Below are positions 3,910 to 63,495 of a DNA stretch of 64,000 nt, one piece after another. The DNA is from Longimicrobiales bacterium (GTDB lineage: Bacteria; Gemmatimonadota; Gemmatimonadetes; Longimicrobiales; Gaopeijiaceae): assembly GCA_965219445.1 (NCBI GenBank), contig CBDCNQ010000005.1, positions 576,001 through 640,000 of the forward strand, written 5' to 3'. The notes beneath the pieces were generated by a model. The model was not told where the DNA came from and did not search any database. It saw nothing but the letters and a program-made list of their open reading frames with translations. Each line of letters starts with the position of its first letter. The stretch's first letter is position 1. Both the position numbers and the translations under genes were made by a program.

Positions 3910-4812
3910 TCAGAGTTCGACTGCGGCCGGATCGCGGTCGGCGGGTCCCCGGAGCGAGGAGCGGTCGCCGCCGCCGCCCAGGCCGAGCGTGCGCAGCAGC
4001 CGCGCCGCGGCCGGTCCGTTGGCGTGGAGCGCGAACCCGGCCGCCGCTTTCGCCTTGATGGCCCCTTCGCGGTAGTTGCCGGACGCGACCTCGATGTTGA
4101 CGCGTCCAGCTCGCCCGTCGGCATCGGCGTACTCGATCTGGGCGTCCGGGTAGAGCACGTGCCCTTCGTCGTCGAGGGGGAGTCCGAGTTCGCCGGCGGT
4201 GCGGTGCCGTTCGGCATCGGCGGCCCGCTTGCCGTCCTTCAGCCGCGCCGCCTCGCTGCCGCGCGCGACGGCGCTCTTGAGTTCGGTGTCGAGCCGGATG
4301 CGCCGCACTGCTGCGCCCCGGTCGAGCAGCCGCTGTTTCTCCTTCATGCAGGCGCGGTAGACGGCGGTGTCGTGCGCGGCCTCGGCAGGCCGGGTGCGGG
4401 CGAACCGGATTTCCTGGCTGGGATCGATTCCCCGTTCGGCTGCCCGCTTCCGAGCTTCGGCCACGCCGCTGCGGGTGAGCGTCAGGACCTTGAACGGGTT
4501 GCCCTTGGGTCCGGTGGCCGTGGTCTCGGTGACGAGCCCTTCCCGTACCCAGGCGTTCACGGCCCGCCGGGTGGTGTAGGGGTGTCCGCCGAAGTGGGCC
4601 TCGGCCAGATCGCGGTACGAGACGGCGCCGTAGACGCCGATGTCGGCGAGCCCGCGCGCGCACCGTTCGGGGAAGGAGGTGGACCCGCGGTCCCTGCTCG
4701 CGGCGTATTCTCGGCGATGGCCGTCCCGCATGCGGTAGCGATTGCGGCTGGGTGGCGCGGCGGTCCGCGGGTCCGGTTCGACCGTGCGGTCGAACATCTC
4801 CTGGCTCCTCAC
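3910..4812 (-). CDS. Putative Replic_Relax/MOBC-like relaxase
   Basis: N-terminal wHTH-like region, HD, then PDAQIEY...VNIEV..NY..AIKAK (PD-(D/E)XK-like); paralogue at 14024-14923. Confidence 0.6.
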   Translation of the reverse strand: MRSQEMFDRTVEPDPRTAAPPSRNRYRMRDGHRREYAASRDRGSTSFPERCARGLADIGVYGAVSYRDLAEAHFGGHPYTTRRAVNAWVREGLVTETTATGPKGNPFKVLTLTRSGVAEARKRAAERGIDPSQEIRFARTRPAEAAHDTAVYRACMKEKQRLLDRGAAVRRIRLDTELKSAVARGSEAARLKDGKRAADAERHRTAGELGLPLDDEGHVLYPDAQIEYADADGRAGRVNIEVASGNYREGAIKAKAAAGFALHANGPAAARLLRTLGLGGGGDRSSLRGPADRDPAAVEL

Positions 4813-6044: not shown

Positions 6045-7048
6045 GGGTTCACCTCCTTGGTGTGTGGGTGCTGTTCTTGCGGGGCTTCGTCGGCCCCGCT
6101 CCAGATCGGTTCGGCGATCCAGCGGCCCTTGGCCGCGTCGTAGCCGCGCACTTCGAGCGCCTCCTCGACGAAGCGCCTGCCCCGTTGCCGGGCCGTGTGC
6201 AGCACAAGTGCGATCCCGTCCACGACGCCCCGGCAGGTGACCTCCCAGGGAAGCGCGCCTTCGGCCTGCATGGCGCAGCTCGCTAGGCGCGAGAGCGCGG
6301 AGCGGGCGTTGTTCGCGTGGATGGTGGTCAGCGAGCCGCCGTGGCCGGTGTTGAGCGCCTGCAGCAGATCGGCGGCCTCGCCGCCCCTGACCTCGCCGAC
6401 GACGATGTGGTCGGGCCGGTGGCGCAGCGCGTGCCGCACCAGGTCGCGGACCCGTACGGAGGTCTCGGTGCCGACAGCCCCGGCCTCGAAGCGGAGGCAG
6501 TTGGCGCGCTCGATCCTGAGCTCGAGCGTGTCCTCGATGGCGACGATCCGCTCGTCTTCGGGCAGCAACTCGATCAGCGCGTTCAGGAGCGTCGTCTTGC
6601 CCGAGCCCGTGCCTCCGGAGACCAGGATGTTCCTGCGGGCCAAGAGGGCCGACCGGGCGGCCCCGAGGACCGTCTCCGGCAGCGAGCCCATGCGCACCAG
6701 GTCCTGAGCCGAGAACGCGCGGCCCCCGAACCGGCGTATGGTGATGGCGACCTCGGGACTCGCGGGCGGCGTGCAGATGGCGACCCTTGAGCCGTCCTCG
6801 AGACGGGCATCGAGGATGGGCCGTGTGGCGGGATCGAGGCCGAGCGGCCGGGCGATGTGGATCGCGGCGCGGTGGAGCCAGGCGGCGGTGAGTGCCGGCG
6901 CCTCGTGGGGCTCGAGTCGGCCGCCTCGCTCGATCCAGACGTTGCCGGGTCCGTTGATCATGATCTCGGAGACCTCCGGGTGCTCAAGGAGCGTCTCCAG
7001 GCCCGGAAGGAACGGCTTCAGGTGCCCGATCCCGCTTGCGCGCTTCAT
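6041..7048 (-). CDS. virB11: VirB11/TrbB/CpaF-family traffic ATPase
   Basis: SGGTGSGKTT, IEDTLEL, RPDHIVVGEVRG, TGHGGSLTTIHA; ATG at 7048. Confidence 0.9.
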   Translation of the reverse strand: MKRASGIGHLKPFLPGLETLLEHPEVSEIMINGPGNVWIERGGRLEPHEAPALTAAWLHRAAIHIARPLGLDPATRPILDARLEDGSRVAICTPPASPEVAITIRRFGGRAFSAQDLVRMGSLPETVLGAARSALLARRNILVSGGTGSGKTTLLNALIELLPEDERIVAIEDTLELRIERANCLRFEAGAVGTETSVRVRDLVRHALRHRPDHIVVGEVRGGEAADLLQALNTGHGGSLTTIHANNARSALSRLASCAMQAEGALPWEVTCRGVVDGIALVLHTARQRGRRFVEEALEVRGYDAAKGRWIAEPIWSGADEAPQEQHPHTKEVNP

Positions 7049-7581
7049 ATCCGTCCCTCCTCGCGGAGCCGCCAGTAGCCCACGTCCCTCGGCAGGTAGT
7101 GGGGTTTCAGGTAGACGCGCCGGGCAGGGAGCGACTTCGTGCCGTCGTATGGCAGGCAGATCGCCTGATAGTTGGCGAGCAGGCTGAAGTCCCGGGGCGT
7201 GAACACGGGCTCCCTCTGCTGCCGGAACGACTTGCTCGCGCCGATCGTGCCGCGGCCCCCTCCGGCTCGCCCGGACAAGAGCGAGAACTCGGGCCTGCCC
7301 GTGGTCTCGGTGAACGTGTAGGAGGGCTGCGTCTTCATGACGCTGCCGCACATCTCGGACGCGATCCGGGCCGACGACTCGTCGCTCAAGGACAGGAAGA
7401 TCCGGGTGCGGAGCGTCTGGAGGAGCGTGCGCCAGGCCTCGCCTCCGGGCAGCACGGAGCGGAGCGAGGAGATCGACTGCGTGGCGACGATCGGGACGCA
7501 GCGGCACTGCCGGGTGAGCGCGAACGCCTTCTCGTCGCCAGCGGGGTCGTCCTGGCCGACGGTCGCGAACGCCTGGTACTC
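7045..7581 (-). pseudogene. virD4: virD4-like coupling protein of ICE-A, 3' part
   Basis: EYQAFATVGQDD...EEGRI matches the C-terminus of 17155-19200; begins at the 9-bp core. Confidence 0.9.
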
Positions 7582-7736
7582 CTTCCACGCACTGTCCATC
7601 TAGGTTCTAGGAAGTCCCATAAGACAAGTGAAGTGGTTGTAGGGGATATACTTACGTTATATTGCCATCTCAGTACGGCTGCTATGTTCCAAGACTGAAA
7701 GGGTGATCCACAGGGTGATCGCAAAAGGGTGACCAC

Positions 7737-8897
7737 ATGGGCAGACACGGCAAGAAACTCACTGCCGCCTTCGTGCGGAGCGTCCAGGAACCGGGGCTGT
7801 ATTGGGACGAGCACGGCCTCGTGCTACGGGTCAAGCCGTCCGGCTACAAGCAGTGGGTCCAGCGACTGTTCATTCACGGCAAGCGCAGGGAGTTGGGGCT
7901 CGGTTCGGTCCGCCTCGTGACGCTGGCCGAGGCGCGGGACGCGGCGCTGGCCAACCGCAAGGTGGCCCGCGCGGGCGGCGATCCGAGGACGAAGCGGCAC
8001 AGTTCAGTGCCGACGTTCGAGCGGGCGGCGGCCAAGGTCTTCGCCATGCACCGTCCGACCTGGACCGACAGGCACGCGGGCCAGTGGATGGCGACGCTGC
8101 GCGCCTATGCGTTTCCCGGGATCGGGGGGAAGCGGGTGGACCGGATCGCGCCCGCCGACGTCATGGGGGTGCTGCTTCCGGTCTGGAACGGGAAGCACCA
8201 GACGGCCAAGCGGGTCCGCCAGCGGATTTCGACGGTGATGCGGTGGGCGATCGCGCAGGGCTACCGCATGGACAACCCCGCGGGCGATGCGATCGGCGCC
8301 GCGCTGCCGAGGCCTCCGCGCGTCCAGAAGCACTACAAGGCGCTACCCTACGGGGAAGTGGCCGGGGCGATTGACGCGATCCAGCGATCCGAGGCAAGGG
8401 TGACGGTGCAGCTGGGCTTCGAGTTTCTGGTGCTGACGGCCTGCCGGTCGGGCGAGGTGCGTGGGGCTCGCTGGGAGGAGGTCGACCTGGAGGGCGGAGT
8501 GTGGACGATCCCGGCGGAGCGGATGAAGAGCCGGCGGGAGCACCGGGTGCCGCTGTCGGCGCGGGCGAGGGAGATCCTGGCCGAGGCGAAGGCGCACGCG
8601 CCTCGTTCGGAGTGGGTGTTCCCGTCCGTGCGGGGGCTGGTGCTGCCGAGCTTCGAGTTCGCGGGCCTGCTCAAGGCGCTCGGGATCGCGGCCGTGCCGC
8701 ACGGCTTCCGCTCCAGCTTCCGGGACTGGACGGCGGAGCGCACCGACGCGCCGCACGCGGTCATGGAGGCGGCGCTGGCGCACGCGGTCCGCAACAGGGT
8801 GGAGGCCGCCTACGCCCGCTCGGACCTGTTCGAGCGCCGCCGCGTCCTGATGGAGCAGTGGGCGGGCTACCTGGCTGGCGAGCGTCGACACGCGTAG
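7737..8897 (+). CDS. P4-type tyrosine integrase with N-terminal arm-binding domain
   Basis: GLVLRV..W..R..GLG; TACRSGE, EHRVPL, HGFRSSFR, LAH, AAY. Confidence 0.92.
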   Translation: MGRHGKKLTAAFVRSVQEPGLYWDEHGLVLRVKPSGYKQWVQRLFIHGKRRELGLGSVRLVTLAEARDAALANRKVARAGGDPRTKRHSSVPTFERAAAKVFAMHRPTWTDRHAGQWMATLRAYAFPGIGGKRVDRIAPADVMGVLLPVWNGKHQTAKRVRQRISTVMRWAIAQGYRMDNPAGDAIGAALPRPPRVQKHYKALPYGEVAGAIDAIQRSEARVTVQLGFEFLVLTACRSGEVRGARWEEVDLEGGVWTIPAERMKSRREHRVPLSARAREILAEAKAHAPRSEWVFPSVRGLVLPSFEFAGLLKALGIAAVPHGFRSSFRDWTAERTDAPHAVMEAALAHAVRNRVEAAYARSDLFERRRVLMEQWAGYLAGERRHA

Positions 8898-8954
8898 GCC
8901 GGTGCCCAGCCGCCGAGGGGCGATCCGTTGAGGCCCGATCCGAGGCCGATCCAC

Positions 8955-9065
8955 GGCTGGCTCATGACCCCTTAAGGGTCAAGAGCCAGCATACCCCTTG
9001 GGGCCACGCTTCGCGGGTCCCCGGCAAGGGCTGGCGAGGGGCTCCGCCCCTTCGACCCCCGACAG
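8955..9065 (+). promoter_or_regulatory. oriT-like site, copy 2
   Basis: GGCTGGCTCATGACCCCTTAAGGGTCAAGAGCCAGCATACCCC...; very similar to 1307-1415. Confidence 0.5.
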
Positions 9066-9282
9066 GTCCGCGCTCCGGCGGAGCGCGCAGTCGGGGGCTC
9101 CGCCCCCCTTCCCCCGGTGCGTCCCGACCGTGGGGGCTATTGAGAACGGTATACCGCTTCACGTTCAGCCCGCCGGTCGAGACCATCCTGCACCGCGTGT
9201 CCGGGTCGTCCCACAGGTGCGCGACTCTCCCGCGCTTTCGTCGGATCAGGTAGAGCTGCGTCCCCGGGTCCCCTTCGGTCAC
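8962..9282 (-). CDS. Small hypothetical protein (3' end uncertain)
   Basis: Protein-like N-terminal half (AHLWDDPDTRCRMVSTGGL); 3' half runs through the structured site. Confidence 0.3.
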   Translation of the reverse strand: MTEGDPGTQLYLIRRKRGRVAHLWDDPDTRCRMVSTGGLNVKRYTVLNSPHGRDAPGEGGRSPRLRAPPERGPVGGRRGGAPRQPLPGTREAWPQGVCWLLTLKGS

Positions 9283-9340
9283 CGTGAGCGTCGTCTCCGC
9301 ACGCCCGCGACCCTGTTGGTTGCCGCCCGTTCACCCCCAC

Positions 9341-10183
9341 TCACGATCCGCCCGCCTTCGAGGGGCGTTCCGGCCACCACATGCAGAACATGAAGGCGAC
9401 CATAAAGAGACGTTGCAGCACCCACGTCATGAAGGCGATGAAGGCGAGCCAGAACAGGACCGACAGCGCGACTCCCGAAACGCCTCCCGCGAGCGCAGCC
9501 ACCAGATCGTCTTCCGCGAGCGTGGGCAGCCTCAGGACGAACTCGGCCAGCCCCCACGAAACGAGGGCGATGAAAGCGAGGATGAGAGCGAGCGTGAACG
9601 GCACCGCTAGAACGGCCGCGAGTGTGGGCAGCCTTAGGACGATCACGCCTCCTCCCCCGTGTCCGGAGCCGTTGCGGATTGCGCGGCCGTTCCCGTCGTC
9701 GCCGCGGTCTGCGTGGCCGTTCCCAGTGCCGCTGCGGGTCGCATCGCCGTCCCCGGAGCCGTCGTGGACCGCGTGGCCGTCCCCGGAGCCGTCGCGGATC
9801 GCGTGGCCATGGCCGGAGCCGCCGCGGAACGCGTGGCCGTGGCCGGAGCCTTCGCGGATCGCATCGCCGTCCCCGAAGCCTTCGCGGATTGCGCGGCCGT
9901 TCCCGGAGCCTTCGCGGATCGCATCGCCGTCCCCGAGGCCGTTGCGGATCGCGCGGCCGTGGCCGGAGCCGCTGCGGATTGCGTGGCCGTGTCCGGGGCC
10001 GGTCATCATCAGCGCACCATCCGCATCGCCGTACATATCGACGGTCAGGCGGTCGCCCTCGGGCACCGTCACGTGCAGGACCGTGCCGGTCGCCTCGACC
10101 GTTGCCCGCACCGTGGACGCCGGAAGCCCGAGCGTCTCTCGCAAGCTCGCCGCCGAGTGACTGACCGATCCGTCGCCGCTCAC
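9341..10183 (-). CDS. Gly-rich decapeptide-repeat membrane protein
   Basis: About 12 RxGxGxGxAI repeats followed by hydrophobic helices. Confidence 0.65.
   Translation of the reverse strand: MSGDGSVSHSAASLRETLGLPASTVRATVEATGTVLHVTVPEGDRLTVDMYGDADGALMMTGPGHGHAIRSGSGHGRAIRNGLGDGDAIREGSGNGRAIREGFGDGDAIREGSGHGHAFRGGSGHGHAIRDGSGDGHAVHDGSGDGDATRSGTGNGHADRGDDGNGRAIRNGSGHGGGGVIVLRLPTLAAVLAVPFTLALILAFIALVSWGLAEFVLRLPTLAEDDLVAALAGGVSGVALSVLFWLAFIAFMTWVLQRLFMVAFMFCMWWPERPSKAGGS
9655..10010. repeat. 30-bp coding tandem repeat (about 12 degenerate units)
   Basis: e.g. ccggagccttcgcggatcgcatcgccgtcc units. Confidence 0.9.
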
Positions 10184-10189
10184 GATCCG

Positions 10190-10295
10190 CCCGCCTTGAA
10201 CTCAGGCGCGTACCTCCGTCCGCTCCCCGACATCCTGACACCTCCCATTGAAATCCAACGCTTCAAAGTGTACAACAAATCGGGGGCCGTGCCCG
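10190..10295 (-). mobile_element. IS3-family left-end/orfA remnant
   Basis: MSGSGRRYAPEFKA after an IRL-like GCCCCCGATTTGTTGTACAC. Confidence 0.5.
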
Positions 10296-10433
10296 ATCGT
10301 CGCACCGTCACCGTCGCCGGTCGAGCTCGCCGGCCGACGGGCCGCAGCGACTGTCGCTGGCGCTGTCGGCACCGCTGCGGCAGGCCATGGCGCACACGCG
10401 GACGTGGACCGCTTCGGCGGACCGCGGCCTCCT

Positions 10434-10528
10434 GGGGGATCGAAGGGGGGCAAAGCGCCCCCCTCGCCAGATCGCAATGTTTGACATTGCGTGGGCTGGC
10501 TTACGCACCTTAAGGGGCGTGAGCCAGC
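10434..10528 (-). promoter_or_regulatory. oriT-like site, copy 3 (inverted, different central hairpin)
   Basis: GGGGATCGAAGGGGGG..CCCCCCTCGCCAG, CGCAATGT-TTG-ACATTGCG, GGCTGGCT..TTAAG..GAGCCAGC. Confidence 0.45.
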
Positions 10529-10568
10529 GCTTCCACCCACGGCCAGCGACGCGGTCGTGGCGGGCAGG

Positions 10569-10901
10569 CTACGGCTTGCCAACGGCCTCCAAGGGCTCCC
10601 CCGTGACGGACGAGCTGTGGCCTCGGTCCACCTGCCTGCGGAGGTGTCTCGACGGTTGGAAGACGGGCACCGCGCGGGGCGGGACCTCCACAGGTTTGCC
10701 GGTCCTGGGGTTGCGGGCCTTGCGGCCCTTGCGGTGCCGCACCTTGAAGGTGCCGAAGCCCCGGAGCTCGATGCCCTCCCCGTGCGCAAGCGCGTCCTTC
10801 ACAGCGTCGAGGAAGGCGTCGACCACCAGCCCGCAGTCCCTCTTGGTGACTCGCGGTCCAACCGCATCGGCGACCTGCTCGACCAGGTCTGCCTTGGTCA
10901 T
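10569..10901 (-). CDS. hup: HU/IHF-family DNA-binding protein
   Basis: MTKADLVEQVA...IELRGFGTFKVRHRKGRKARNPRTG. Confidence 0.92.
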   Translation of the reverse strand: MTKADLVEQVADAVGPRVTKRDCGLVVDAFLDAVKDALAHGEGIELRGFGTFKVRHRKGRKARNPRTGKPVEVPPRAVPVFQPSRHLRRQVDRGHSSSVTGEPLEAVGKP

Positions 10902-11272
10902 AATCCCCTTCTCCTCGCCCGAAGTGTGGCCAGGGTCCCGTCGCTCATCATGATAACTTGCAGGGACGCGCGATGTGGTCGCGGCTTTCGGGTTGCCGGT
11001 TGCTTCACTGGACAGCCGCCCTGCGGGCCGGCCATTTTGAGAGGCGTGTCTCATCCCCGAGATGCGGCCGCTGTCGAACTTGAGTTGCCGGGAGTCGCTA
11101 TGGGACGAGGCCGGGTCCCACGGGACGGCCGAACGACCGAACGGCGAACGGTACTGCTCCATGGGATTCTGCTATCCGCCGTGCAAAGGGTGATCGCAGG
11201 GGTGATCGATGGGGAGAAAGCGACATCATAACTAATTATGGAATATAGAGTTATGACATATAGTTTATCGGA

Positions 11273-12042
11273 CTGGTACTCGTCGCAGATGAACACGGCG
11301 GGCCGGAGGTAGCGGCCGGGCCGGCGTGCGAGCTCGGCGGGCCGCCGGAGCAGCGCCTGCATCCAGGCGTTCTTGAGCAGCACGCCGATGGCGCGGGCGA
11401 GCGCGGGGTTCGCGCCCGCGGGCATGTTGAGCGCGAGGACCTTGCCGCCCTCGATCAGCTCGCTGAGCGGCGGCAGCCGGCGCCGGAGGCCCGGCACGGG
11501 CCGGACGGCCGCCGCATCCTCGTCCGGTGTGTCCTTATATATATGTGTGGGCGCATCCGGCTCGGGAGGCGGCGGGCAGAACACGCCGGCGACCTGCGGC
11601 TGGTCGAAGAGCGAGAGGAACACGCTGATGCCCTCGACGATCGACGTGCGGAGCTTGGCGTCGAGCGCCGTCCAGTCATGCAGATACCACCGCTCGATGG
11701 CCTCGACCTGCTCACGGAACTCGCTCCCCGCTCCGCCCCCGCTCTCCTCCGTCTCGTATGCGACCTTGAGTTCCTTGAGCCGGTCCCGGAGTGCGGGGTC
11801 GAGCTGGCAAGCCGCCTTGTCCGAGCCGGGCACCGGCTCCCAGCCCCAGTCCCCGAGGGGTTCCTTGTGAGCGGCGAGATCCTTGGTCGCGACGGTGGCC
11901 CGCACCGGGCAGAGCCGGTCGGCCAGCTCGCGAGCCTCGCCGATCTTGCGGCCGAACAGTTCCGCATCCACCGTGCAGCGGTAGATGTCTTGGAGCGTGA
12001 CCCAGCCCCCCGGCAAGAGCCGGTACAGTTCGATGATCCAGC
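11273..12042 (-). pseudogene. virD4: virD4 of ICE-A, middle part
   Basis: WIIELYRLLPGGWVTL...FICDEYQ; cut by the ICE-B end at 12041 and by the satellite at 11273. Confidence 0.9.
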
Positions 12043-12131: not shown

Positions 12132-13295
12132 TCAGGTCCGAACTCTCCGGCGGTTTGCGAGCGCCGCCCTGAGTTGTCCCTCGTCCGCCCGCTGATAACA
12201 CTGGAGGACGGTCTTGGCCGTCTTCCATCCGCCGAGTTCGCAGAGGACCTTGAGGGGCTGGTCCATGAGATCGGACGCGAACTTGCGCCTCAGCGAGTGC
12301 CAGCCCCGTCCGCGTTTCGGCTCCAGACCTGCGAGCCCTTCGGCCCTCTTCCACCAACCGCGGGAGATCCAGGAGCCGACACTCACCGAGGGGTCCCTCG
12401 ACGAGGGCAACACCGGAGCGCTGCCGGTCACGGGGTTCCGCCCCCGCGCCGACTCCAAGGCTGCGATTGCTTCAGCGGTCACCGGCGTTCGGTGCTCGTA
12501 GCCGGTCTTCTCGTGCTCGCTGCGCCACCGGATGGTTTCGCGTGCCAAGTCGATGTCGGACCACCGGAGCTTGCGGATGGCTCCGATGCGGTGTCCGGTC
12601 TCGTGCGCGAGCACGAGCGCGAGATGGAACCGCCAATCCACCTCTTGGGACACCTTCAGAAGCGCTTGGTACTCGTGTTCGGAAAGAACGACCCGGGTGG
12701 GGTTCTTCTCCATGGGCATCTTCAGGCCCCTGAGCGGGTTCGACTCGAGGAGCAGGCGGCCCCGCTCGTCCCTCGACCTCGAGGCCCAGTTGAGGACCGA
12801 GATCAGGTACCTCAGGTCGTATTCGATCATCCGATCCGACACGGGCCTCCCGCTGGGGCCTACGCTTCCCGCCCTGCGCGCCCGGATGAATCGGTCCCAG
12901 TCGCGCTGCGACAAGGTCGCCGGGTCGCGGCTCCTTCCCAGGAACCCGAGGAACATCTTCGCCGCGGTCCGGTCGTGCTGCCGCGAACTCAGGCCCTTGG
13001 TGGGCGTCACCTCTTCACCGTAGATGTCAAAAAGCGTTCCCAGGGTGAGCGGCTCGGGCTCGGCGTTCTTCTTGCCGTTCAGCTCCGGTCCGGCGAACCC
13101 GGCGGCGAACTCGTCCGCCTGCCTCCTCGCCTGCCTCCAGTCGCGGTGCTTCAGCGACCTGGTGAGCCTGCGCCCGTTGTCGCGCCACTCGATCTGGTAC
13201 AAGCCGGTCTTGGGATCGGGGAACACCCTCACCCGGTTCCGGCCCCATTCGCCGGCGCTGTAGCCGCGCCGGACTCGTTTCGTGCGTGCCATCAT
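12132..13295 (-). CDS. Tyrosine integrase of ICE-B
   Basis: Paralogue of 1974-3137; start MMARTK at 13295. Confidence 0.9.
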   Translation of the reverse strand: MMARTKRVRRGYSAGEWGRNRVRVFPDPKTGLYQIEWRDNGRRLTRSLKHRDWRQARRQADEFAAGFAGPELNGKKNAEPEPLTLGTLFDIYGEEVTPTKGLSSRQHDRTAAKMFLGFLGRSRDPATLSQRDWDRFIRARRAGSVGPSGRPVSDRMIEYDLRYLISVLNWASRSRDERGRLLLESNPLRGLKMPMEKNPTRVVLSEHEYQALLKVSQEVDWRFHLALVLAHETGHRIGAIRKLRWSDIDLARETIRWRSEHEKTGYEHRTPVTAEAIAALESARGRNPVTGSAPVLPSSRDPSVSVGSWISRGWWKRAEGLAGLEPKRGRGWHSLRRKFASDLMDQPLKVLCELGGWKTAKTVLQCYQRADEGQLRAALANRRRVRT

Positions 13296-16153: not shown

Positions 16154-17158
16154 GGGTTCACCTCCTTGGGTTGGTGGGTGCTGCTTTGGGGGGGTTCCTC
16201 GACCCCGCTCGATATCGGTTCGGTGACCCAGTGGCCGGTGGCCGCGTCGTAGCCCTGGACCTGGATGGCCTCCTCGACGAACCGTCCTGCCTCGTTGCCG
16301 GGTGATGTGGAGCACGAGCGCGATGCCGTCGACGACGCCCCGGCAGGTGACCTCCCAGGGGAGCGCCCCTTCGCCCTGCATGGCGCAGCTGGCCAGGCGC
16401 GAGAGAGCGGAGCGGGCGTTGTTCGCGTGCACGGTGGTGAGCGAGCCGCCGTGGCCGGTGTTGAGCGCCTGGAGGAGATCGGCGGCCTCGGCGCCCCTGA
16501 CCTCGCCGACGACGATGTGGTCGGGCCGGTGCCGGAGCGCGTGGCGCACCAGGTCACGGATCGATACCGGCGTCTCGGTGCCGACCGCACCGGCCTCGAA
16601 GCGGAGGCAGTTCGCGCGGTCGATCCTGAGCTCGAGCGTGTCCTCGATCGCGACGATCCGCTCGTCCTCGGGGAGCAGTTCGATCAGCGCGTTCAGCAGA
16701 GTGGTCTTCCCCGAGCCGGTCCCCCCGGAGACGAGGATGTTCCTGCGGGCGCGGAGCACCCTCTTGGCTTCGCGCAAGACCGCCTCCGGCAGCGAACCCA
16801 GGCGCACGAGATCTTCGGGCGAGAACGCCCGCCCCCCGAACCGACGTATGGTGATGGCCACCTCGGCAGCTGCGGGCGGGGTGCAGATGGCGACCCGCGA
16901 CCCGTCGCCGAGCCGGGCGTCGAGGATGGGCCGCGCGGCGGGATCGAGCCCGAGCGGCCGGGCGATGTGGATCGCGGCGCGGTGGAGCCAGGCGGCGGTG
17001 AGTCCGGGCGCGTCGTGGGGCTCGAGCTTCCCCGCCCGCTCGACCCAGACGTTGCCGGGTCCGTTGATCATGATCTCGGAGACCTCCGCGTCCTCGAGCA
17101 GGGTCTCCAGGCCCGGAAGGAACGGAGTGAGGTGGCCGACGCCGCTCGCGCGCTTCAT
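16150..17158 (-). CDS. virB11: VirB11 ATPase with a frameshift near 16285
   Basis: ATPase motifs intact; one extra base relative to copy A shifts the C-terminal tail. Confidence 0.8.
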
Positions 17159-19200
17159 ATCCGGCCCTCCTCGCGGAGCCGCCAGTAGCCGGTCTCCCTC
17201 GGCAGGTAGTGCGGCTTGAGGTAGACGCGCCGCGCGGGGAGCGACACGACCCCGTCATACGGCAGGCAGATCGCCTGGTAGTTCGCGAGCAGCGAGAACT
17301 CGCGCGGCGTGAACACCGGCTCGCGGGCCTGCCTGAACGACTTGCTCGCGCCGATCGTGCCGCGTCCGCCTCCGGCGCGCCCGGAGAGGAGCGAGAACTC
17401 GGGCCTGCCCGTGTTCTCGGTGAACGTGTAGGAGGGCTGCGTCTTCATGACGGTGCCGCACATCTCGGACGCGACCCGCGCCGACGCCTCGTCGGACAGC
17501 GAGAGGAAGATCCGGGTGCGGAGCGTCTGGACGAGCGTGCGCCAGGCCTCGCCCGAGGGCAGCACGGAGCGGAGCGAGGAGATCGACTGCGTGGCGACGA
17601 TCGGGATGCAGCGGCACTGGCGCGTGAGCGCGAACGCCTTCTCGTCGCCCGAAGGGTCGTCCTGCCCGACGGTGGCGAACGCCTGGTATTCGTCGCAGAT
17701 GAACACGGCGGGCCGGAGGTAGCGGTCGGGACGCCGGGCGGCCTCGGCGGGCCGTCGGAGCAGCGCCTGCATCCAGGCGTTCTTGAGGAGCACGCCGATC
17801 GCGCGGGCGAGCGCGGGGTTAGCGCCCGCGGGCATGTTGAGCGCGAGGACCCGTCCGTTTTCGATCAGATCGGCGAGCGGCGGCAGCCGGCGGCGGAGTC
17901 CGGGCAGGGCGTGGGCGGGCGCGTGACCGTCGGCTTTCTCCCCCGCGCCCGCGTCTCTCTCACTTCCGGTGCAAGGAGTGGTGGGCGGCGGAGGGCAGAA
18001 CACGCCGGCGACCTCGGGCTGGTCGAAGAGCGACAGGAAGACGCTGATGCCCTCGACGATCGAGGTGCGGAGCTTGGCGTCGAGCACCGTCCAGTCGTGC
18101 AGGTACCACCGCTCGATGGCCTCGACCTGCTGCCTGAACTCGCCGCCCGCGCCTCCCCCGGCCGCTTCCACCTCGCATGCGACTTCGTGCTTCGCGAGCT
18201 GCGCCCGAAGCTCCGCGTCCATCCGGCAGCGCACCTGTTCAGTGCCGGGCACCGGTGCCCAGTCCCACTTCTTGAGCGCCTCCGCATGGGCGATCATGTC
18301 GTCGCTGGAGATGACGGCGTCCACCGGAGAGATCCGGTCGGCCATCTCGCGGGCCTCGCCGATCTTCCCCGCGAACAACTCCGCGTCCACGGTGCAGCGG
18401 TAGATGTCCCGGAGCGTGACCCAGCCCCCCGGCAGGAGCCGGTGCAACTCGACAATCCAGCGCACGAGGTTCGTGTACGCCTGCTGCCAGAACGGTTCTC
18501 GGCTCTTGCCGAAGAGCTGGTTGATGAGGGACGCCACGCCGTAGGCCAGCGAGTAGGAGTCGAGCAGCGGATCGTCGAGCGGGTTCCACTGCCAGGAGCC
18601 GTCGAGCCCGATTTCGAGGTAGTCCTCGCCGCGCCCGGCGTCCTCGAGGATGCCGCGGACCTGGTGGCAGAAATCCCCCTTTACCTCGAGCACGAGCGCG
18701 CCCGCCCTGCGGCCAGGATCGTCGGCCCGCCAGGAGAGGAGCTGCTGCGCGAACGGATACATGCAGGCGGTGGTCTTGCCGGTGCCGACGGCACCCACGA
18801 TGAGGATGCCGGTGTAGAGCCCCTTCTCGGGGACGACGAGCCAGGAGGGCCGCTCGCTCTCGCGCGCCACGGTCGGATGATGCAGTTCGCCGATCACGAG
18901 CGAGGGCGCCTCGTCGGTGGCCGAGGTGGGCCAGGCGGGGAGCTTCCCGCGGGCGCCGCGCCGGGTACGCGGCTCGAGCCAGACCCTCGAGACCGAGAGG
19001 CAGACGCTGCCGGCGAGCAGCAAGGCGACGGCCGGCACCGCGTAGTACCAGACGCGGATCACCGTGTGCAGGCCCGGATCGTGGTAGGCGATGAGGTCCA
19101 GCGCGGGGTTCCCGCCGATGCCCGGGAACGGCGCAAGGAACGCGCGGACCGTGGCCGCCGTCAGGGCCACCCCGATGATGACCAGCGTCCAGGGCCTCAT
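17155..19200 (-). CDS. virD4: VirD4/TraG-like type IV coupling protein (intact)
   Basis: Two N-terminal TM segments, GAVGTGKT, EVKGD, FICDEYQ, ATQS. Confidence 0.85.
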   Translation of the reverse strand: MRPWTLVIIGVALTAATVRAFLAPFPGIGGNPALDLIAYHDPGLHTVIRVWYYAVPAVALLLAGSVCLSVSRVWLEPRTRRGARGKLPAWPTSATDEAPSLVIGELHHPTVARESERPSWLVVPEKGLYTGILIVGAVGTGKTTACMYPFAQQLLSWRADDPGRRAGALVLEVKGDFCHQVRGILEDAGRGEDYLEIGLDGSWQWNPLDDPLLDSYSLAYGVASLINQLFGKSREPFWQQAYTNLVRWIVELHRLLPGGWVTLRDIYRCTVDAELFAGKIGEAREMADRISPVDAVISSDDMIAHAEALKKWDWAPVPGTEQVRCRMDAELRAQLAKHEVACEVEAAGGGAGGEFRQQVEAIERWYLHDWTVLDAKLRTSIVEGISVFLSLFDQPEVAGVFCPPPPTTPCTGSERDAGAGEKADGHAPAHALPGLRRRLPPLADLIENGRVLALNMPAGANPALARAIGVLLKNAWMQALLRRPAEAARRPDRYLRPAVFICDEYQAFATVGQDDPSGDEKAFALTRQCRCIPIVATQSISSLRSVLPSGEAWRTLVQTLRTRIFLSLSDEASARVASEMCGTVMKTQPSYTFTENTGRPEFSLLSGRAGGGRGTIGASKSFRQAREPVFTPREFSLLANYQAICLPYDGVVSLPARRVYLKPHYLPRETGYWRLREEGRI

Positions 19201-19504: not shown

Positions 19505-20440
19505 TCAAAACAGGCCCCCGGAAAGCCGGGGGGAACGCCAGACCGTGAAGCCGTCGATCATCGCTTCCGAGGGCGCGGTCGGGAGCGCGGCCCTGAGTTC
19601 GACGATCCGCGCCAGGCAGCCCTGGAGACTGCCGTACGCTTGGATCACGCTCTCGTCCATGCCGCGGATGGCCTGCTCGATCCGGTCGATTTCGCGGCGG
19701 ATCCGACGGCCGGTCGCGGATGCTTTGGACCGGCCGGGGGACCGGGCCGGCGCGGTCCAGTTGCCGAGGACCTTCTCCGCCCGCTCGAACTCCCTGCCGC
19801 CCAGGACGACCGCGACGGACTCTACCGGTCGGCCCCGCTCCCGGAGCGCGCCCCAGAGTTCCCGGTGGGCGCGGCCCCAGGAGCGGAGGCCCGCGGCGGT
19901 CTCGTGGCCCGGATCGGCGTAGACGAACACCGCGCCCTGGCCATCAAGCGCGACGGGCAGCTTGAGCGGGAAGTAGCGCCGGAGGTTCCCGGCCGCTCCC
20001 CGGTAGAGCCGCGAGGGCAGGAGCCGGCGCTCGATGCCGAGGGCCTCGAACGCGGCGACCTTCTCGGCTTCGGTGGCCAGCCACGACAAGTCGGTGTGCT
20101 CGAGCACGTAGTCGAGCGAGAGCAGGCGCCGCAGGAGCACTTCATCGGAAGCGGTCCGGCGGTGGCGGATGTCCTCGGCCCCGAGCGCGCGGTAGATCCC
20201 GCGCCCGCAGATCCGGCAGACTTTCCGGCCTTCCAGTGTCTCGTCGGCTGCCAGCCTTCGCTCCGACATGGCCCGGACGAACCGAAGAGCCTGCCAGCGA
20301 TCGATCCGTAGATAGGCAGAGAGCTGGGCGCGGGTGAACACGCCGCTGTGCAGACAGGCCAGCGCGATCCACTCGGCCTGGCGTCCCGTCCACCCGAACG
20401 GCTCGAGCGCCTGTTCGCGCTCCCGCAGATGGGCGATCAC
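19505..20440 (-). CDS. Conserved ICE protein with wHTH-like N-terminus, function unknown
   Basis: GTG start overlaps the virB8 stop; further partial copies at 520, 24324, 31487. Confidence 0.75.
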   Translation of the reverse strand: MIAHLREREQALEPFGWTGRQAEWIALACLHSGVFTRAQLSAYLRIDRWQALRFVRAMSERRLAADETLEGRKVCRICGRGIYRALGAEDIRHRRTASDEVLLRRLLSLDYVLEHTDLSWLATEAEKVAAFEALGIERRLLPSRLYRGAAGNLRRYFPLKLPVALDGQGAVFVYADPGHETAAGLRSWGRAHRELWGALRERGRPVESVAVVLGGREFERAEKVLGNWTAPARSPGRSKASATGRRIRREIDRIEQAIRGMDESVIQAYGSLQGCLARIVELRAALPTAPSEAMIDGFTVWRSPRLSGGLF

Positions 20441-27388: not shown

Positions 27389-29071
27389 ATGAATCTCACG
27401 ATCGCGGATATGATGTCATCCTCCACATTCCTTCGAATGCCGACACCCTATCAAAATGTTGTTGACCAGCTCGATCTAGCCGCCGCATTGACTAATGGAT
27501 CGGAAAGAAACGATCTGCTGCTGCCGCGAGCTGAGGACAAGGTAGGCGGGGAGGTTGGCAACAGGTTTCTTCAGGCTCTGATACGCGACCTCGAACGCGG
27601 GAGATATGATCCGGCTCCTGCATATACCGTCAGGGTGCCGAAATCCACATCTGCGACGCGTCCCGCGGCCCTACTGACGCTCAACGACCGAGTCGTCTAT
27701 GCAGCCTTGGTGGCTACGCTACGTTCGCGGATCGACAGTTACCTTCTCGGCGAAGAAATCGTCTTCTGGCCCCGAGGTCTACAGCGTAACAAGAGCTGGC
27801 TCAAGTTCGAGCACTCGCCGCTCACCGATTCATGCAAGTATGTGGTCCTCGCTGACGTCTCGGGCTTCTACGAATCGGTGGACCATAGGCGCTTGGCCGA
27901 GCGATTGATCCGAGCCACTGGCAAGCGAGCTGAAGTCGAGGCGCTATCCCATTTCCTGACGAGAGTGATGGGCGGCTCCCGTGGCCTACCTCAGGGGCTC
28001 GATGCTTCAGACCCGCTCGCCACAGCTTATCTAGCAGAGCTGGATTTGGCGATGATACGTAATGGATTCGCTTACACGCGACATGGGGACGACTTCCGCG
28101 TCGCGATGAAAGGCTATGACGATGCTCGCGGTGCCTTATACACCCTTGAAGCATGCGTGCGGAGCGCGGGCCTGCTCCTAAGTGGACACAAGACGAGAGT
28201 GCTGAAGGCATCAACCTATAAGGATGCCGTCCAGTCAATTGAGAAGTCGATTGCCGATGTGCGAAGCAAGGTCCTCAGCAAGAAACTCGCAACGCTAGAG
28301 GATGATCCGGATGCGCTAGACACGGCCATCGATCTTGCTGACATGGAACAGCTCGGGTGGGATTTCTTCTATCATGGGAACGTGTCATTGCAGGAAGTTA
28401 TTGACCAGTTGCGGCCGTCACTCGAGCCGAATGCGGTCGAGATTGCCGAGGACCTTTTCGCAGAAACGTGGGAGCGGAGACCCGGTAAACCCAACGCTCT
28501 TGCTAGCGATGCCTTTCATCAGAGGATTGTCGCTTCATTGGTCAGGTTGGCAGCGGGGCGCTCTCCCAAAGCGCTGGGGGCAGCAGGCGATATCCTCATT
28601 TCATATCCCGAGAAATCGGAGGTTGTATGCTCGTATCTCCTCGCGCTGGCGGGAACAGAACCCAAGAAGGTCGCCGCGCAGGCGAGCAAGACCTTGAAAG
28701 CCGGGCGGTTCCGCACGGAGTGGGAGGTGGCGTGGGCTGCCCGGGTCTTAACCTCCGTTGCGGATCAGTTGCCGGAGTGGGTCGTCTCGCAACTGGAGGC
28801 GCTGACCACGTCACCTTTCGATTCGTGGCTCGCAGCAACCGAGGTAGCCAAGCTTCTGAGTGCCCAAGGGGAGCTGAGTCGTGAGGCGTTTATGCTCCTC
28901 TGGAATGCCTGCCCCGTTGTCTTTCGGGCGGACCTCGTCGTAGCGGCGAACAGTCTCTCCACGAATGCAGAATGGGCGAGGGTCTTCCTGTCTGCGGTCA
29001 AGGATGATCGTATTCATCAGGTGATACTAGGTCAGTTGCAGCAACAGGGTACCCAGCCTGCGACCTCCTAG
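27389..29071 (+). CDS. Reverse transcriptase (UG/Abi/DRT-like) with helical C-terminal domain
   Basis: VPK..TRP, ADVSGFYESVDH, GLPQG, RHGDDF, HKT; start uncertain (27389 or 27437). Confidence 0.85.
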   Translation: MNLTIADMMSSSTFLRMPTPYQNVVDQLDLAAALTNGSERNDLLLPRAEDKVGGEVGNRFLQALIRDLERGRYDPAPAYTVRVPKSTSATRPAALLTLNDRVVYAALVATLRSRIDSYLLGEEIVFWPRGLQRNKSWLKFEHSPLTDSCKYVVLADVSGFYESVDHRRLAERLIRATGKRAEVEALSHFLTRVMGGSRGLPQGLDASDPLATAYLAELDLAMIRNGFAYTRHGDDFRVAMKGYDDARGALYTLEACVRSAGLLLSGHKTRVLKASTYKDAVQSIEKSIADVRSKVLSKKLATLEDDPDALDTAIDLADMEQLGWDFFYHGNVSLQEVIDQLRPSLEPNAVEIAEDLFAETWERRPGKPNALASDAFHQRIVASLVRLAAGRSPKALGAAGDILISYPEKSEVVCSYLLALAGTEPKKVAAQASKTLKAGRFRTEWEVAWAARVLTSVADQLPEWVVSQLEALTTSPFDSWLAATEVAKLLSAQGELSREAFMLLWNACPVVFRADLVVAANSLSTNAEWARVFLSAVKDDRIHQVILGQLQQQGTQPATS

Positions 29072-33429: not shown

Positions 33430-33956
33430 TCCTCCGGGATCGGCTCGCCGAGCTCGAGATCCCGTTCGAGACCGAGGAGAGCGAGGGCGGTGCGGGCAGC
33501 GAACTCAGGGAGCAGGTGGAGGCGATCGAGCGCTGGTACCTGAACGACTGGGTGGCACTCGATGCCAAGCTCCGCACCTCCATCGTGGAAGGCATCTCGG
33601 TCTTCCTGTCGCTGTTCGATCAGTCCGGCGTGGCCGGAGTGTTCTGTCCGCCGCCTCCGGAGCCGGATGAATCTACATCTATACATATAGGTGACGGTGC
33701 GCCCGGCGAGGACGCCGCGGCCGTCCGGCCCATGTCGGGCCCCCGCCGCCGGCTGCCGCCGCTCACGGAGCTGATCGAAGGGGGCCGGGTCGTGGCCCTC
33801 AACATGCCTGCGGGCGCGAACCCGGCGCTCGGCCGCGCCATCGGCGTGCTGCTCAAGAACGCCTGGATGCAGGCGCTGCTCCGGCGGCCCGCAGAGGCCG
33901 CCCGCCGGCCCGGACGCTACCTCCGGCCCGCAGTGTTCATCTGCGACGAGTACCAG
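33430..33956 (+). pseudogene. virD4: Third virD4 fragment, ending at the Walker B core
   Basis: ...VEAIERWYL...FICDEYQ, then satellite-type end sequence. Confidence 0.88.
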
Positions 33957-34250
33957 TCGGATGTGTTATGGATAATAACACCATGTGGCATAACAGTTTA
34001 TGGTGTCGCTTGTCCCCCGTCGATCACCCTTGAGATCACCCTTTTCGCGGCGGGTAGCGGAATCCCATGGAGCAGTTCCGTTCGCCGTTCGGTCGTTCGG
34101 CCGTCCTGTGGGACCCGGCCTCGTCCCATAGCGACTTCCGGCAACTCAAGTTCGACGGCGGCCGCATCTCGGGGGATGAGGCACGCTTCTCGAAGCGGTC
34201 GCTGCTCGCCGTGTTCCAGCCATCGAGGCTCCTCCGCGGCCGGGTGGAGC
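33948..34250 (-). mobile_element. End of a second virD4-targeting satellite with an HU remnant
   Basis: GAGTACCAG core, GATCACCCT at 34022 and 34034, similar to inverted 11050-11281; VFQPSRLLRGRVER HU tail. Confidence 0.85.
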
Positions 34251-36848: not shown

Positions 36849-39800
36849 CTATTGGGGAAGCGCTTGTTCCAGCAACTCGTAATCCGTCACGAGATCCAAC
36901 ACATCTCGCGCCTTTCCGGAAAACTGCATCGGAGCGAGTTGCTCTGTCACCAGCGCCGACCGCAACTGCAATCGGTCTACGGGAACACCTACGAAGTCCG
37001 CAAGCCGTTGGCGATTGGCTTCAAGAAACGAAACACGGTCGAGGTGCCTCTGCAATGGCGTGCGTTTCCCGTCAACAGTTCCGGCAGAGTACTCTTTCAA
37101 GCGCTCCCCGATCTCGCCGCAGGTGCGGTCGCAACGGAGGCTCTTGCACTCGACAGCGTACACCAGCCCGGTAGCCGGTTGCCATGCCAAGACATCCACA
37201 TCTCCGAGCGACTGGCCGCCTCCGAATCGCGTGAGCCTCACTTCCCCCTTCGTCTTCCACCGCAACTCGCCGAGCCGTTCGGCTACCCTGCGCGCGAACT
37301 CATGCCCATTCCTATCTGCCGCTCTTCCTATACAGGCGCCCATCTCTGGACTGTCAAAGAGGGTCCCTGGAAGTTCGCCGAATGCCGCTTGGTGTAGGTA
37401 GCGCAACGTCCCAGCAAGTATCGAAGGCACCACGGTCACGAAGGGATCGGCCTCCATCGACAATTGGACGAGCGGACGGCGCATGATGGACAGACGGCGG
37501 TTGTATCGCCACGGCCACCAGTCTCTTGCCCTGGCGTTGTCAGGATCATCCTCATTCCACCGAGATCTAGGAACAAGCGCAAATGCTTCGAATACACGCT
37601 CCGGATTCATCACGCCGACATGTCGTAGCCGCTGGACGACTTCGCTTCTCCTGAGCCGCAAATGGGCGCCGTTCGCCTCCAAGGCTTCCACCGTGAGTCG
37701 ATGGACAAACGTCCCGTACTGTTCTGGGCTCAGGCCAAACTCGGCGAGAAAGGCGGATGGGAACTCCGGGTCTGCCACTCCATCCTCGCCTGCGCTCATA
37801 CCGTCGACTTCGTCATCCGTCGCCGCATCCCGAAATGTTCGCTGCCAATGTTCGGTTATCAGCAGACCTGTCGCCGCTGCGGTTGACTCGTCGAATCCGA
37901 AGGAACCATTCGGGTGCATGACCGGCGGGTGCGTCGCTAAACCGTAGTGCAACGCGTCGCTTTGCCCGGCACATTCCAGAAGCGTCGCAACCTCCGCAAC
38001 CAGAAGGTCGAGGTCCGTCCCCGAGCAGGGTGATCCGGTACCGTACGGCGATGTGCACAGCGCCATCTCCGCAATGATCCGGCAAGCCAGACCGGCGGTA
38101 TCCCGGCGAAGGACGTGCTCGTTCGCGGCACCCCTGACCTGCGCATGGTCGTAGAGGGCGAGTTGCGCCGCCGTCGACCGCAGCCAATCCCGATGCTCCT
38201 TCCGGGCCGCGACGTAATTCAAGAGCGATCGTTCGATCACGCTTTCTCGGGAGAGATCGACGAGCCGCGATCTGATGCGCTGCCAAAGCTCAACCACCGC
38301 ATCATTGAGAAGCGCGACGGCACGGGCCGACGGAATGGGGCCTGGTTTGCCCTGGTATCCGGCCCGGCGCCCAAGCTCGAAACGGCTCCAAGCCCAATCT
38401 TCCGGCATCAAGAGGCGCAACTTCGGAAGCGCGGCAACGTCATAGATCGCATCTTCCGGCGTGCTGCTCGGTGTCATCTTGAGGAAACGGGCGCTTTCGG
38501 ATCCGACCATGTCGCCCACCCATTCCTCCAGGTCAGCATCGGAAACAGCCTGGTTGCCGCACAGCGAATCCACGCCTCGCACCAACGACTCAATCATCAG
38601 GCGGTCGCCGAGATTGCCCGCGCTTAGAAAGCAACGTAAGTACTGCGACGTGCAGTCGATGGCGATCCCTCCGCCTTCTACAGCCACCGCAGGTGCTACT
38701 GGTGCCTCCGGCATCTGAATGCCCCGTTGATCGAACGTCTCGATGTCTGGGAAACGGACCCTAATGGCTACAGGACCGGACGGCAGCGTGGTGTTCCGGT
38801 CTTCGAGCAGGGGGACCAAGCGGACCAGCCAGCCGAGGACCATCGCCAGAACGCCGAACGCGACATCGAGGTGCCATCCGGCTTCCGGAAGCTGGCTGCA
38901 TTGGACCCACCATGGTCGCGAGGCGGATTCTACGCAGGCCAGAGGTTCTCCGTGAGCCCAATGCCTGCGACTGAGGAATACCAGGCGACCCCGTGCCTCG
39001 TCGAAATATTCGCCTGTCGGATCGCGCTGGACATCCACCCATGAGTTGCCATCGGGACCCACCGAAGCGTGTCGATCGAGCGCAGTGCGCACCTTGTGGC
39101 GCAGCGGCAAGATAAAGTCGCTGTGCAGGAGCATCGGACCCGGGCTAAAGTTCTCCGGCACGAGCTCAAACCCAACGTGATCCGCGAAGGCCGCCAAGTT
39201 CAAGAAACCGCGCAGATTCGGAAAGACGACGCCCGCTGCTTCCAATTCGTCGACCATCTGGAGAAGCTTCCAGGCCCGCATCGCGGTGAAGTCCGTTTCG
39301 CTTCCCAAGAGCATGAAATCAGGCGCAGATATGCAAAGCTGATGCCAGCCGTCTGGAAGATCTCCCCATACCGGCGCAAACTCACGGCCGATGCCGCCAT
39401 GAACCAGCACCGTCAGGCCTCTCCGGCAACGGTCTTCGCGGGCAAGCTCAGCCGCCCGGTCATGGATTCTTTCCCAGACGGCGTCCTCAAGCCTGTGAAC
39501 GCTTGCTAGTCCCTCCCTGGCGATCTCCTCGAAATCATCGGGAACAAAGACTACATGGACATACGCGTCCTCATCGAAGGCTCCGACGAACTCCCTCATG
39601 CCATCGTCTGGATCACGCTCGAGCATCCTCACGTATTCGATGCCCCAGTCTGGCCTTCCCAATAGGAACGCCTCGATGAACTGCTCCAGGTGGCAGGTCG
39701 ATTGAAACAGCCGCAGGTCCCCCGCCGCTGTAGCCTGCTCAATCACGAAGCGCCTGATCGCTGCCCCGATGCCTGTCGGAAGCGCCACCGTCGTCTGGCC

Positions 39801-40568: not shown

Positions 40569-40626
40569 GGAAGGTGTTTCGGTCAGTCAGAACTTGAAGT
40601 TGGCTGGCACGGGGACGGATGATCGT

Positions 40627-40908
40627 TCATACACACAAGGTAGTTGACGTACCGGTACCGAACGTGACGGAGGGTGCTGCCGAAGCGATTCCCTTTCGGG
40701 ACCGAAGTTGCAAGACCTCATCGCAGTTGACGCACCGATAACGTGGATGGTGCTTCTTGCCGGTGTACCTGAACACGTAGTCGCCATTGCCCAGGTCGTG
40801 GTATTCGTAGTTGCGCGGAGGCTTCTTGCGCCTCCTGGATCTTGAGATCCTGGCCGTTCTGAGGGGTCGCAGCACTGCGGCCAGGAGGGTCGCGACGGCC
40901 TCAATCAT
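40627..40908 (-). CDS. Small hypothetical protein with CxxC
   Basis: ATG just after the R-M gene stop; YRCVNC. Confidence 0.35.
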   Translation of the reverse strand: MIEAVATLLAAVLRPLRTARISRSRRRKKPPRNYEYHDLGNGDYVFRYTGKKHHPRYRCVNCDEVLQLRSRKGIASAAPSVTFGTGTSTTLCV

Positions 40909-43644: not shown

Positions 43645-44821
<1,177 letters not shown>

Positions 44822-62031: not shown

Positions 62032-62895
62032 TTACATAGTGTCAATCGCCACACCCTTCGATACCCCCCCCTGGGATGTGAGCTGGACGTTGCCGTGTAA
62101 CACCATAGAGCTCACCTGCGCGATCGGAAGGTCCGTGACGATGCCATCGAGTGCCTGGACCCTCAGACATAGCGCGGCTCTTCCGACCCGCGATCCCGGC
62201 TCGGTGACATGCACTATCTGACGGTCATCGTCTGGAGGAGCCGGTAATGACCGATGGTCGGTCGGCCTTTCCTCATCCGGCAAGCAGACGCCAGAGAGGC
62301 TGCAATGCGTGCAGAGGTTGCGGTTCTCGGCTACCGGTGGGCGCCTTGAGGACGCGCTGAGCCTCCGCGCTTCGGCGATGGCTTTCCGCACGTCGTTACG
62401 GAGGTCATCTGTAACGGCTACGTGAACCCAGGCACTATCGCGTGCGTAGTGGATGCGTGCATGCCGAACGGAGGTCTTCCGAAGGTCCTCCAGAAGCATG
62501 GCATAGGCGCCGACCTGTAGTACGTCAGACGGCCACCCAGCGAGTCCGGCTTCGGTTCGTCTAGCTCTGCCACGCTTAACCTCGACAGGGATCAGATCCT
62601 CCTTCTCCGACCGAATGAAATCGACGCGCCCTTGGAGTCCCAAGCGGGCCGAAACGACGTGCATCGAATCTTTGTGCTTGCGCTCAAGTGAGGCATGGAG
62701 TTCTCGGCCCGCGTAGACGCGGGCGTTGGCCACTCGCTGCCCTTCGACATTCTCGAGATAGAATAGGCGAGGGCAGTAGGCGAGCGCGTGAAGAGCCATC
62801 ACGGGCACCAGTTCGACCGAATCTGCCGGTGGATTTGAGCGGAGCCCCTGGACCCCACTTCCTTCCCCCTCAACCTCCTGGCGTGAGGCGGACAT
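62032..62895 (-). pseudogene. cas4/cas1: Cas4-Cas1 fusion truncated early in Cas1
   Basis: YCPRL, GRVD, VEVK, QVGAY, CxxCSLxxxC; then HVTEPGSRVG...LHGNVQLTSQ and a stop. Confidence 0.85.
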
Positions 62896-63493: not shown

Positions 63494-63495
63494 CC

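Follow-up and report, generated by a model that had tools for sequence, protein, structure and literature searches.

A 64,000-nt stretch of a Longimicrobiales genome (positions 576,001 to 640,000, forward strand, of contig CBDCNQ010000005.1, assembly GCA_965219445.1; hereafter the window) contains a 3,700-bp element that splits virD4, the coupling-protein gene of an integrative and conjugative element (ICE), at its Walker B codons. We read it as a relaxase-less integrative element sitting in the virD4 overlap GTACCAG, and likely as a hitchhiker with only an origin of transfer (oriT), which would excise, be nicked in trans and leave through the mating pore of its helper; we put the probability of this reading at roughly 0.65. 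An earlier note on this DNA had described a satellite integrated into the Walker B codons whose excision might gate conjugation. The satellite nature and the site-specific integration are supported by the data below. For this copy, the data do not support the proposal that transfer of the helper requires excision of the satellite.

The ends of the element and the flanking virD4 pieces are as follows.

7573..7581, forward strand: 9-bp direct repeat CTGGTACTC, integrase-side attachment (att) site, with the 7-bp overlap at 7573-7579
11273..11281, forward strand: 9-bp direct repeat CTGGTACTC, far-side att site, with the 7-bp overlap at 11273-11279
7700..7734, forward strand: three arm-type repeats RGGGTGAYC (copies at 7700, 7712 and 7726)
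11187..11207, forward strand: two arm-type repeats RGGGTGAYC (copies at 11187 and 11199)
7045..7581, reverse strand: virD4 3' piece, codons 503-681 of the 681-aa intact copy
11273..12042, reverse strand: virD4 middle piece, codons 247-505, without Walker A

As the earlier note had stated, the 9-bp repeat is present at both ends, and the reverse complement of CTGGTACTC encodes E-Y-Q. In-silico removal of the element gives an open frame through RPAVFICDEYQAFATVGQ up to the virD4 stop, as expected for precise excision, and the reconstructed attP core agrees with the proposed GGA-CTGGTAC-TCC. The 9-mer by itself is common (41 copies in the assembly); its weight comes from its position exactly at the ends of both virD4 pieces and from identical junctions in relatives. 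The arm repeats described in the earlier note were found at both ends in a 3 + 2 layout, with no further RGGGTGAYC copy within the element and a genome-wide density of 0.06 per kb. With the looser pattern RGGGTGAYY, the same layout was seen in 6/6 virD4 elements that have both ends in view (the window copy, L116, L120, L121, L122 and L123; two-ended elements below).

The two-ended elements occur in two orientations, one in the window, L116 and L123 and the other in L120, L121 and L122. In either orientation, seven identical virD4 bases, GTACCAG in forward or reversed reading, are preceded by GGA and followed by TCC from the element. The 7-bp overlap is therefore fixed, and the 7-bp spacer that had been predicted is pinned to these bases. 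Sister elements at other targets have the same GA-N7-TC frame. In a FastTree tree of 61 integrases, the orientation groups form separate branches, although the joining nodes are weakly supported.

Relatives were searched for integrase homologs in 300 genomes of the same family, 19 of which carry the integrase at E ≤ 1e-150. Split virD4 flanks, the survey suggested in the earlier note, were found for eight of the nine best-scoring non-self integrases (88-98% identity): these adjoin virD4 at its Walker B codons, and the remaining one occupies a secondary site that shares the CTGGTAC overlap. The next integrases (79-88% identity) have other targets, such as mobC at its 5' end and a different integrase gene at its 3' end. 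Sister integrases with 80% identity (L129-L132) are inserted at the mobC start with overlap GCGCCGC or GCATCGC, and one with 85% identity (L128) has a paralogous integrase gene as its target, inserting within its 3' end. Near-identical integrases (96-98%) were found in genomes of three genera and, in one genome, at three different places; the cargo is unlike between near-identical element backbones.

A pattern search within the family gave 11 matches, 2 of which are uninterrupted genes (L154 and L160). A pattern scan of genome contigs, which is incomplete in that junctions known from the family search are partly absent from its output, returned 19 stretches, 4 of them junctions and 15 uninterrupted virD4 genes of other phyla (with EYQS), and a wider host range was ruled out on this ground. 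All named records with junctions are labeled Longimicrobiales or Gemmatimonadetes. Among the matches listed for a metagenome search with the integrase, the best had at most 57% identity, and 0/80 loci had virD4. The uninterrupted virD4 genes of Acidobacteriota and Chloroflexota (L135-L153) read GA-GTACCAG-TC, a fully symmetric GA-N7-TC core, and 0/15 carry an element; most Longimicrobiales virD4 copies read GA-GTACCAG-GC. That the target is a conserved attB found modest support only: Walker B lies at the 87th percentile of conservation among 6 unbiased virD4 copies, while the 98th percentile obtained with 21 copies carries a bias, 15 of them having been retrieved with a pattern covering the site itself.

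Between its ends, the element carries the following features.

7737..8897, forward strand: P4-type tyrosine integrase, 386 aa, catalytic motifs present
8955..9127, forward strand: oriT-like site 1 of ColE1 type, made up of a hairpin, GAGCCAGCATACCC and a GC-rich hairpin
9341..10183, reverse strand: cargo open reading frame (ORF), 280 aa, with 10-residue Gly/His repeats and a hydrophobic C-terminus
10314..10427, forward strand: degenerate mobC fragment, 78% nucleotide identity to mobC elsewhere in the genome
10430..10535, reverse strand: oriT-like site 2, inverted relative to site 1, with TAAGCCAG core
10569..10901, reverse strand: IHF/HU-family DNA-bending protein, 110 aa

The integrase is intact, as had been claimed, with the domains Arm-DNA-bind_3, Phage_int_M and Phage_integrase and the motifs R-K-H-(H-x-x-R)-H-Y, whose residues we take to be catalytic. 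The gene previously called HU does match PF00216, but IHF models give it a higher score than HU models do, with all scores below the cut-offs. The element is without mating-pore genes, no relaxase ORF turned up in the six two-ended elements, and no transposase was found in the window copy. The cargo between the two oriT-like sites differs among two-ended elements and includes GmrSD, McrBC, a TonB receptor and beta-propellers. The 280-aa cargo ORF of the window copy has no Pfam family and seven homologs, none of them named; it is bracketed by a 19-bp direct repeat (9340-9358 and 10179-10197), beside which lies a short frame, SGSGRRYAPEFKA (10180-10266), presumably similar to the start of an IS3-family orfA. 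Contigs assembled from public runs join oriT-like site 1 straight to the mobC fragment (joint 9127 to 10290), pointing to an insertion of the cargo at the start of mobC.

Judged by sequence and position, the two oriT-like sites that had been proposed are probably real. The motif is found 106-314 nt upstream of 9 of the 12 mobC matches in this genome, and the mobC operons with the motif encode a PF03432 relaxase (8 matches in the genome) and an MbeD-like protein. A co-resident PF03432 relaxase is 29% identical to ColE1 MbeA (E-value 2e-20). In ColE1 itself, TAAGCCAGTATACAC lies roughly 400 nt upstream of mbeC, and the GC-rich stretch after it resembles the one in each oriT-like site. In two further mob plasmids (L191 and L192), no CTGGCTTA-type motif was found upstream of mobC.

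The lack of a relaxase makes it likely that the element hitchhikes on relaxases and mating pores provided in trans, and genes for both are present elsewhere in the genome, including a complete virB2-virB11 module with intact virD4 on the same contig (C5:1051693-1063812). We infer that the element would excise as a circle by means of its own P4-type integrase, with the IHF/HU protein bending the att DNA and the AlpA protein of the helper used as excision factor. Relaxases of other resident elements would then nick the ColE1-type oriTs in trans, and the element could leave through the intact mating pore of a helper. Because the oriT-like sites match the ColE1-type mob modules of other small elements, such a scheme would amount to a dependence on three tiers, in which the helper provides the pore and coupling protein, ColE1-like integrative elements the relaxase, and the satellite only an oriT. 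Walker B is a landing site that exists wherever a helper exists, live or decayed. Inactivation of the occupied virD4 gene is most likely a side effect that other copies buffer.

Several points weigh against this reading. The ColE1 8-mer alone was not significant (50 of 200 shuffles), and the position of nic within the ColE1 oriT is a presumed one. The nic sequence does not appear in the accessible portions of PMC5935869 or PMC5864857. Acceptance of an MbeA-like relaxase by the helper VirD4 is an assumption. No excisionase was found inside the element: one AlpA query gave no match in 15 satellites, a search that an unrelated recombination directionality factor would escape. The earlier note had proposed looking for attP circles and empty attB sites in reads. 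Our read evidence consists of joints in contigs assembled from public runs, and such contigs drop rare variants. The attP circle joint was absent among the 15 of 118 joints listed; the empty-site joint (7572-to-11273) was present in three of four runs, but it is no proof of excision because paralogous virD4 genes can give it. Finally, in genome G090 the satellite is the only visible break in an otherwise uninterrupted virB2-virB11 module, which has no helper integrase match within 60 kb, and this would fit a real switch there.

Such a switch, operating at the level of the lineage, is the alternative that survives best, though we consider it unlikely. The satellite would keep the coupling protein of the helper off until the virB operon is induced and provides the excision factor, whereupon helper and satellite would become transferable together. 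The insertion does part Walker B from its downstream residues. In helpers, alpA (PF05930) lies directly before virB2, a position at the head of the virB operon that, should AlpA act in trans, would link excision to induction of the helper, and the 15 satellites are without an AlpA match of their own. Excision would restore the full virD4 frame in three of the six two-ended elements (L121, L122 and L123), not in the window copy. There, the following features are relevant.

12030..12042, reverse strand: junction of a second ICE-like element cutting virD4, GCTGGATCATCGA
12132..13295, reverse strand: tyrosine integrase of the second ICE-like element
17155..19200, reverse strand: intact unoccupied virD4 of the second element, with overlap variant ATACCAG

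The second ICE-like element removed virD4 codons 1-246, in agreement with the earlier caveat that this virD4 has lost its 5' end: of its 681 codons, the 247th is now the first, and the gene is without Walker A, which occupies residues 136-143 in the intact copy. A 5' piece ending at codon 247 was not found in the assembly, which is 91.8% complete. With codons 1-246 still missing after excision, no matching 5' piece and five intact unoccupied full-length virD4 copies in the genome, the switch is inoperable in this copy; elsewhere it is unproven. It is likewise inoperable in L116, also cut at codon 247, and in L120, which has frameshifts. Other full-length virD4 genes are present in 6/6 genomes, so that in none of these would the occupied gene be the sole functional copy; at least one of them is unoccupied in 5/5 relatives tested (in G272 only a 58%-identical one). 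Among the seven uninterrupted Walker B sites of the window genome, two carry ATACCAG and one GTATCAG instead of the perfect overlap. Sister integrases moreover target genes that are dispensable for the pore (mobC, integrase genes and ardC), and both orientations occur.

The caution in the earlier note that elements targeting ICE genes are known in Firmicutes was well placed, since the gating idea is already published. Integrative and mobilizable elements (IMEs) with serine integrases reside in traG (VirD4) of Tn5252-superfamily ICEs of streptococci and clostridia (IME_Sco1050_traG_site1/2, Tn6104), and Coluzzi 2017 and Guedon 2017 proposed that they are excised once conjugation is induced, an idea for which none of the ICEs in question had then been tested (PMC5357655, PMC5704250). 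For two streptococcal IMEs in other ICE genes, excision was undetected in the data available from PMC7168690, which counts against the switch.

Insertion into helper genes is not restricted to Walker B. In this assembly, 18 of the 32 near-complete P4-type integrase genes have, within 155-197 nt, an end abutting a helper-ICE gene (three weaker or more distant matches are left out), while helper-ICE genes cover 3.2% of the assembly; the count is no formal test because paralogs are not independent and mobile elements cluster. Nucleotide-exact recurrent breakpoints with both halves present were found in virB4 at nt 609/619 (3 and 3), in a 311-aa ORF at nt 468/480 (5 and 5), in ardC at nt 740/753 (3 and 1), in virB11 at nt 715/721 (1 and 1) and in virD4 at nt 755/763 (2 and 1). 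The targets of this guild include virB11 (GHGGSL motif), virB4, ardC, the 311-aa ORF, virB5 and the helper integrase, for example at 12174/19014, 1640090/1649481, 1180890/1188935 and 1002813/1016336 of G000 C5. A broader picture can be drawn, of a Longimicrobiales radiation in which P4-type satellites divide the catalytic motifs of one helper among themselves (virD4 Walker B both ways, virB4, virB11, ardC, mobC), borrow ColE1-like relaxases and are excised by the AlpA of the virB operon, with conjugation unlocked only by coordinated excision of the passengers; we regard it as rather unlikely.

It is quite improbable that the element is a once-mobile relic, integrated site-specifically in the past and now passive inside decaying composite ICE regions. 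The near-identical integrases across three genera and at three places in one genome, the secondary site and the differing cargo all speak against it, even if the mobC remnant, the missing excisionase and orphan ends at window position 33948 and in G014, L115 and L119 are what a relic would leave. The ICE-into-virD4 junction is also common to the window and L116 (L116:4303-4420) and may be inherited. At the orphan end in the window (33948..34194, forward strand), a second junction lies at the identical virD4 nucleotide, with the repeat at 33948-33956 and a related far-side arm with two arm repeats, and the remainder of the element is missing; G014 has a further virD4 junction of the same kind.

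Very improbable, in our view, is a competitor-silencing role, in which insertion would be selected for blocking the helper's own transfer, leaving the pores to the satellite. The target is a catalytic motif, and the guild also strikes virB4, virB11 and helper integrase genes, but the satellite itself depends on VirD4 and the pore. VirD4 acts in trans, so that silencing one copy favors no single substrate. A chance repeat, a transposon target duplication or an assembly artefact has next to no probability, in spite of the common 9-mer and the repeat-rich region, because the same nucleotide junction recurs in independent genomes and in both orientations, and no transposase is present.

Other observations concern the surroundings of the element. 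The idea of a split protein, prompted by an ATG at 7599 that is in frame with virD4's 3' half, was ruled out because a stop occupies this place in the closest relatives. The region 7400-11450 gave no match to a sigma-70 promoter or to a terminator. The second ICE-like element has a 98%-identical twin (G000 C5:231688), which occupies the same 13-mer, GCTGGATCATCGA, within an hsdM-like gene; via this shared sequence, the integrase end reads RWIIEND in the hsdM-like gene and RWIIEL in virD4. The other end of the second ICE-like element was lost to further insertion. The virD4 3' piece is followed by virB11, ardC and a Replic_Relax-like ORF. This conserved 295-aa ORF (3910-4797), without a Pfam family, has an atlas value of 0.90 to PF13814 (Replic_Relax) and may be the helper's own relaxase, which we offer as a lead; a genome search for TrwC or Replic_Relax gave no match, and the Replic_Relax control also matched nowhere. 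The 311-aa helper ORF (window 19505-20440) is conserved, with no family found. The window further holds a reverse transcriptase (27437-29071), a restriction-modification-like cluster split by IS110 (36849-46151) and cas4/cas5-like genes (62032-63804), and 17 tRNA genes are arrayed within 2.4 kb at G000 C3:31920-34298.

The mobilization features resemble the ColE1 mob region (oriT-mbeC-mbeA-mbeB-mbeD) in the TAAGCCAG core with its downstream GC-rich hairpin and, in co-resident elements, in the mobC-relaxase-MbeD layout. In contrast to ColE1, these are chromosomal integrative elements, and all that the satellite retains is a mobC fragment and the two oriT-like sites. The relaxase of the co-resident elements has a motif of what we take to be the three-His type, not HEN.

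In the accessible parts of the respective papers, three other systems come close. Like the traG IMEs, the element is inserted site-specifically, disrupts the coupling-protein gene of a helper ICE and brings no replacement fragment, and in both groups several sites in conserved ICE genes are used and many hosts are decayed (PMC5357655, PMC5704250). The traG IMEs have serine integrases and occur in Firmicutes, whereas this element has a P4-type tyrosine integrase, a 7-bp overlap and relatives in Longimicrobiales; it also differs in having no relaxase, ColE1-type oriT-like sites, an IHF/HU gene and both orientations. The helper-embedded phage-inducible chromosomal islands (HE-PICIs) are a tyrosine-integrase clade that repeatedly evolved sites inside essential helper prophage genes (14 sites), and they share arm motifs doubled on each side of attP, off-target insertions and truncated helpers (PMC10111431). 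Their helper is a prophage, with which they are co-oriented, and they encode AlpA and a primase (PMC10111431); the helper here is conjugative, both orientations occur, and AlpA and primase were not found in the element. The iOriTs, oriT-only integrative elements of six nosocomial species, likewise combine an integrase and an oriT without relaxase or mating-pore genes, with defense-type cargo in some members (bioRxiv 10.64898/2026.01.13.699239). The oriTs of iOriTs match conjugative helpers, whereas the element described here has ColE1-type oriT-like sites and lies inside its helper.

The element works like streptococcal traG IMEs and like an iOriT, and is a member neither of the traG IMEs, given its integrase class, nor of the HE-PICIs. 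In the literature covered, mostly papers outside subscription, we found no description of tyrosine-integrase elements residing in virD4, nor of elements of this kind from Gemmatimonadota. New here are the tyrosine integrases, the Gram-negative host, the two-way capture of one site and the guild. Helper-embedded satellites of conjugative elements are thereby extended from serine integrases of Firmicutes to tyrosine integrases of Gram-negative bacteria, and split virD4 and virB4 genes in these genomes should be annotated as insertion sites, not as simple decay. The short, exactly mapped att sites make the 2017 hypothesis of excision gating triable, and one 7-bp site captured both ways, together with 80-98% identical integrases with different overlaps, provides a natural series for the study of target change.

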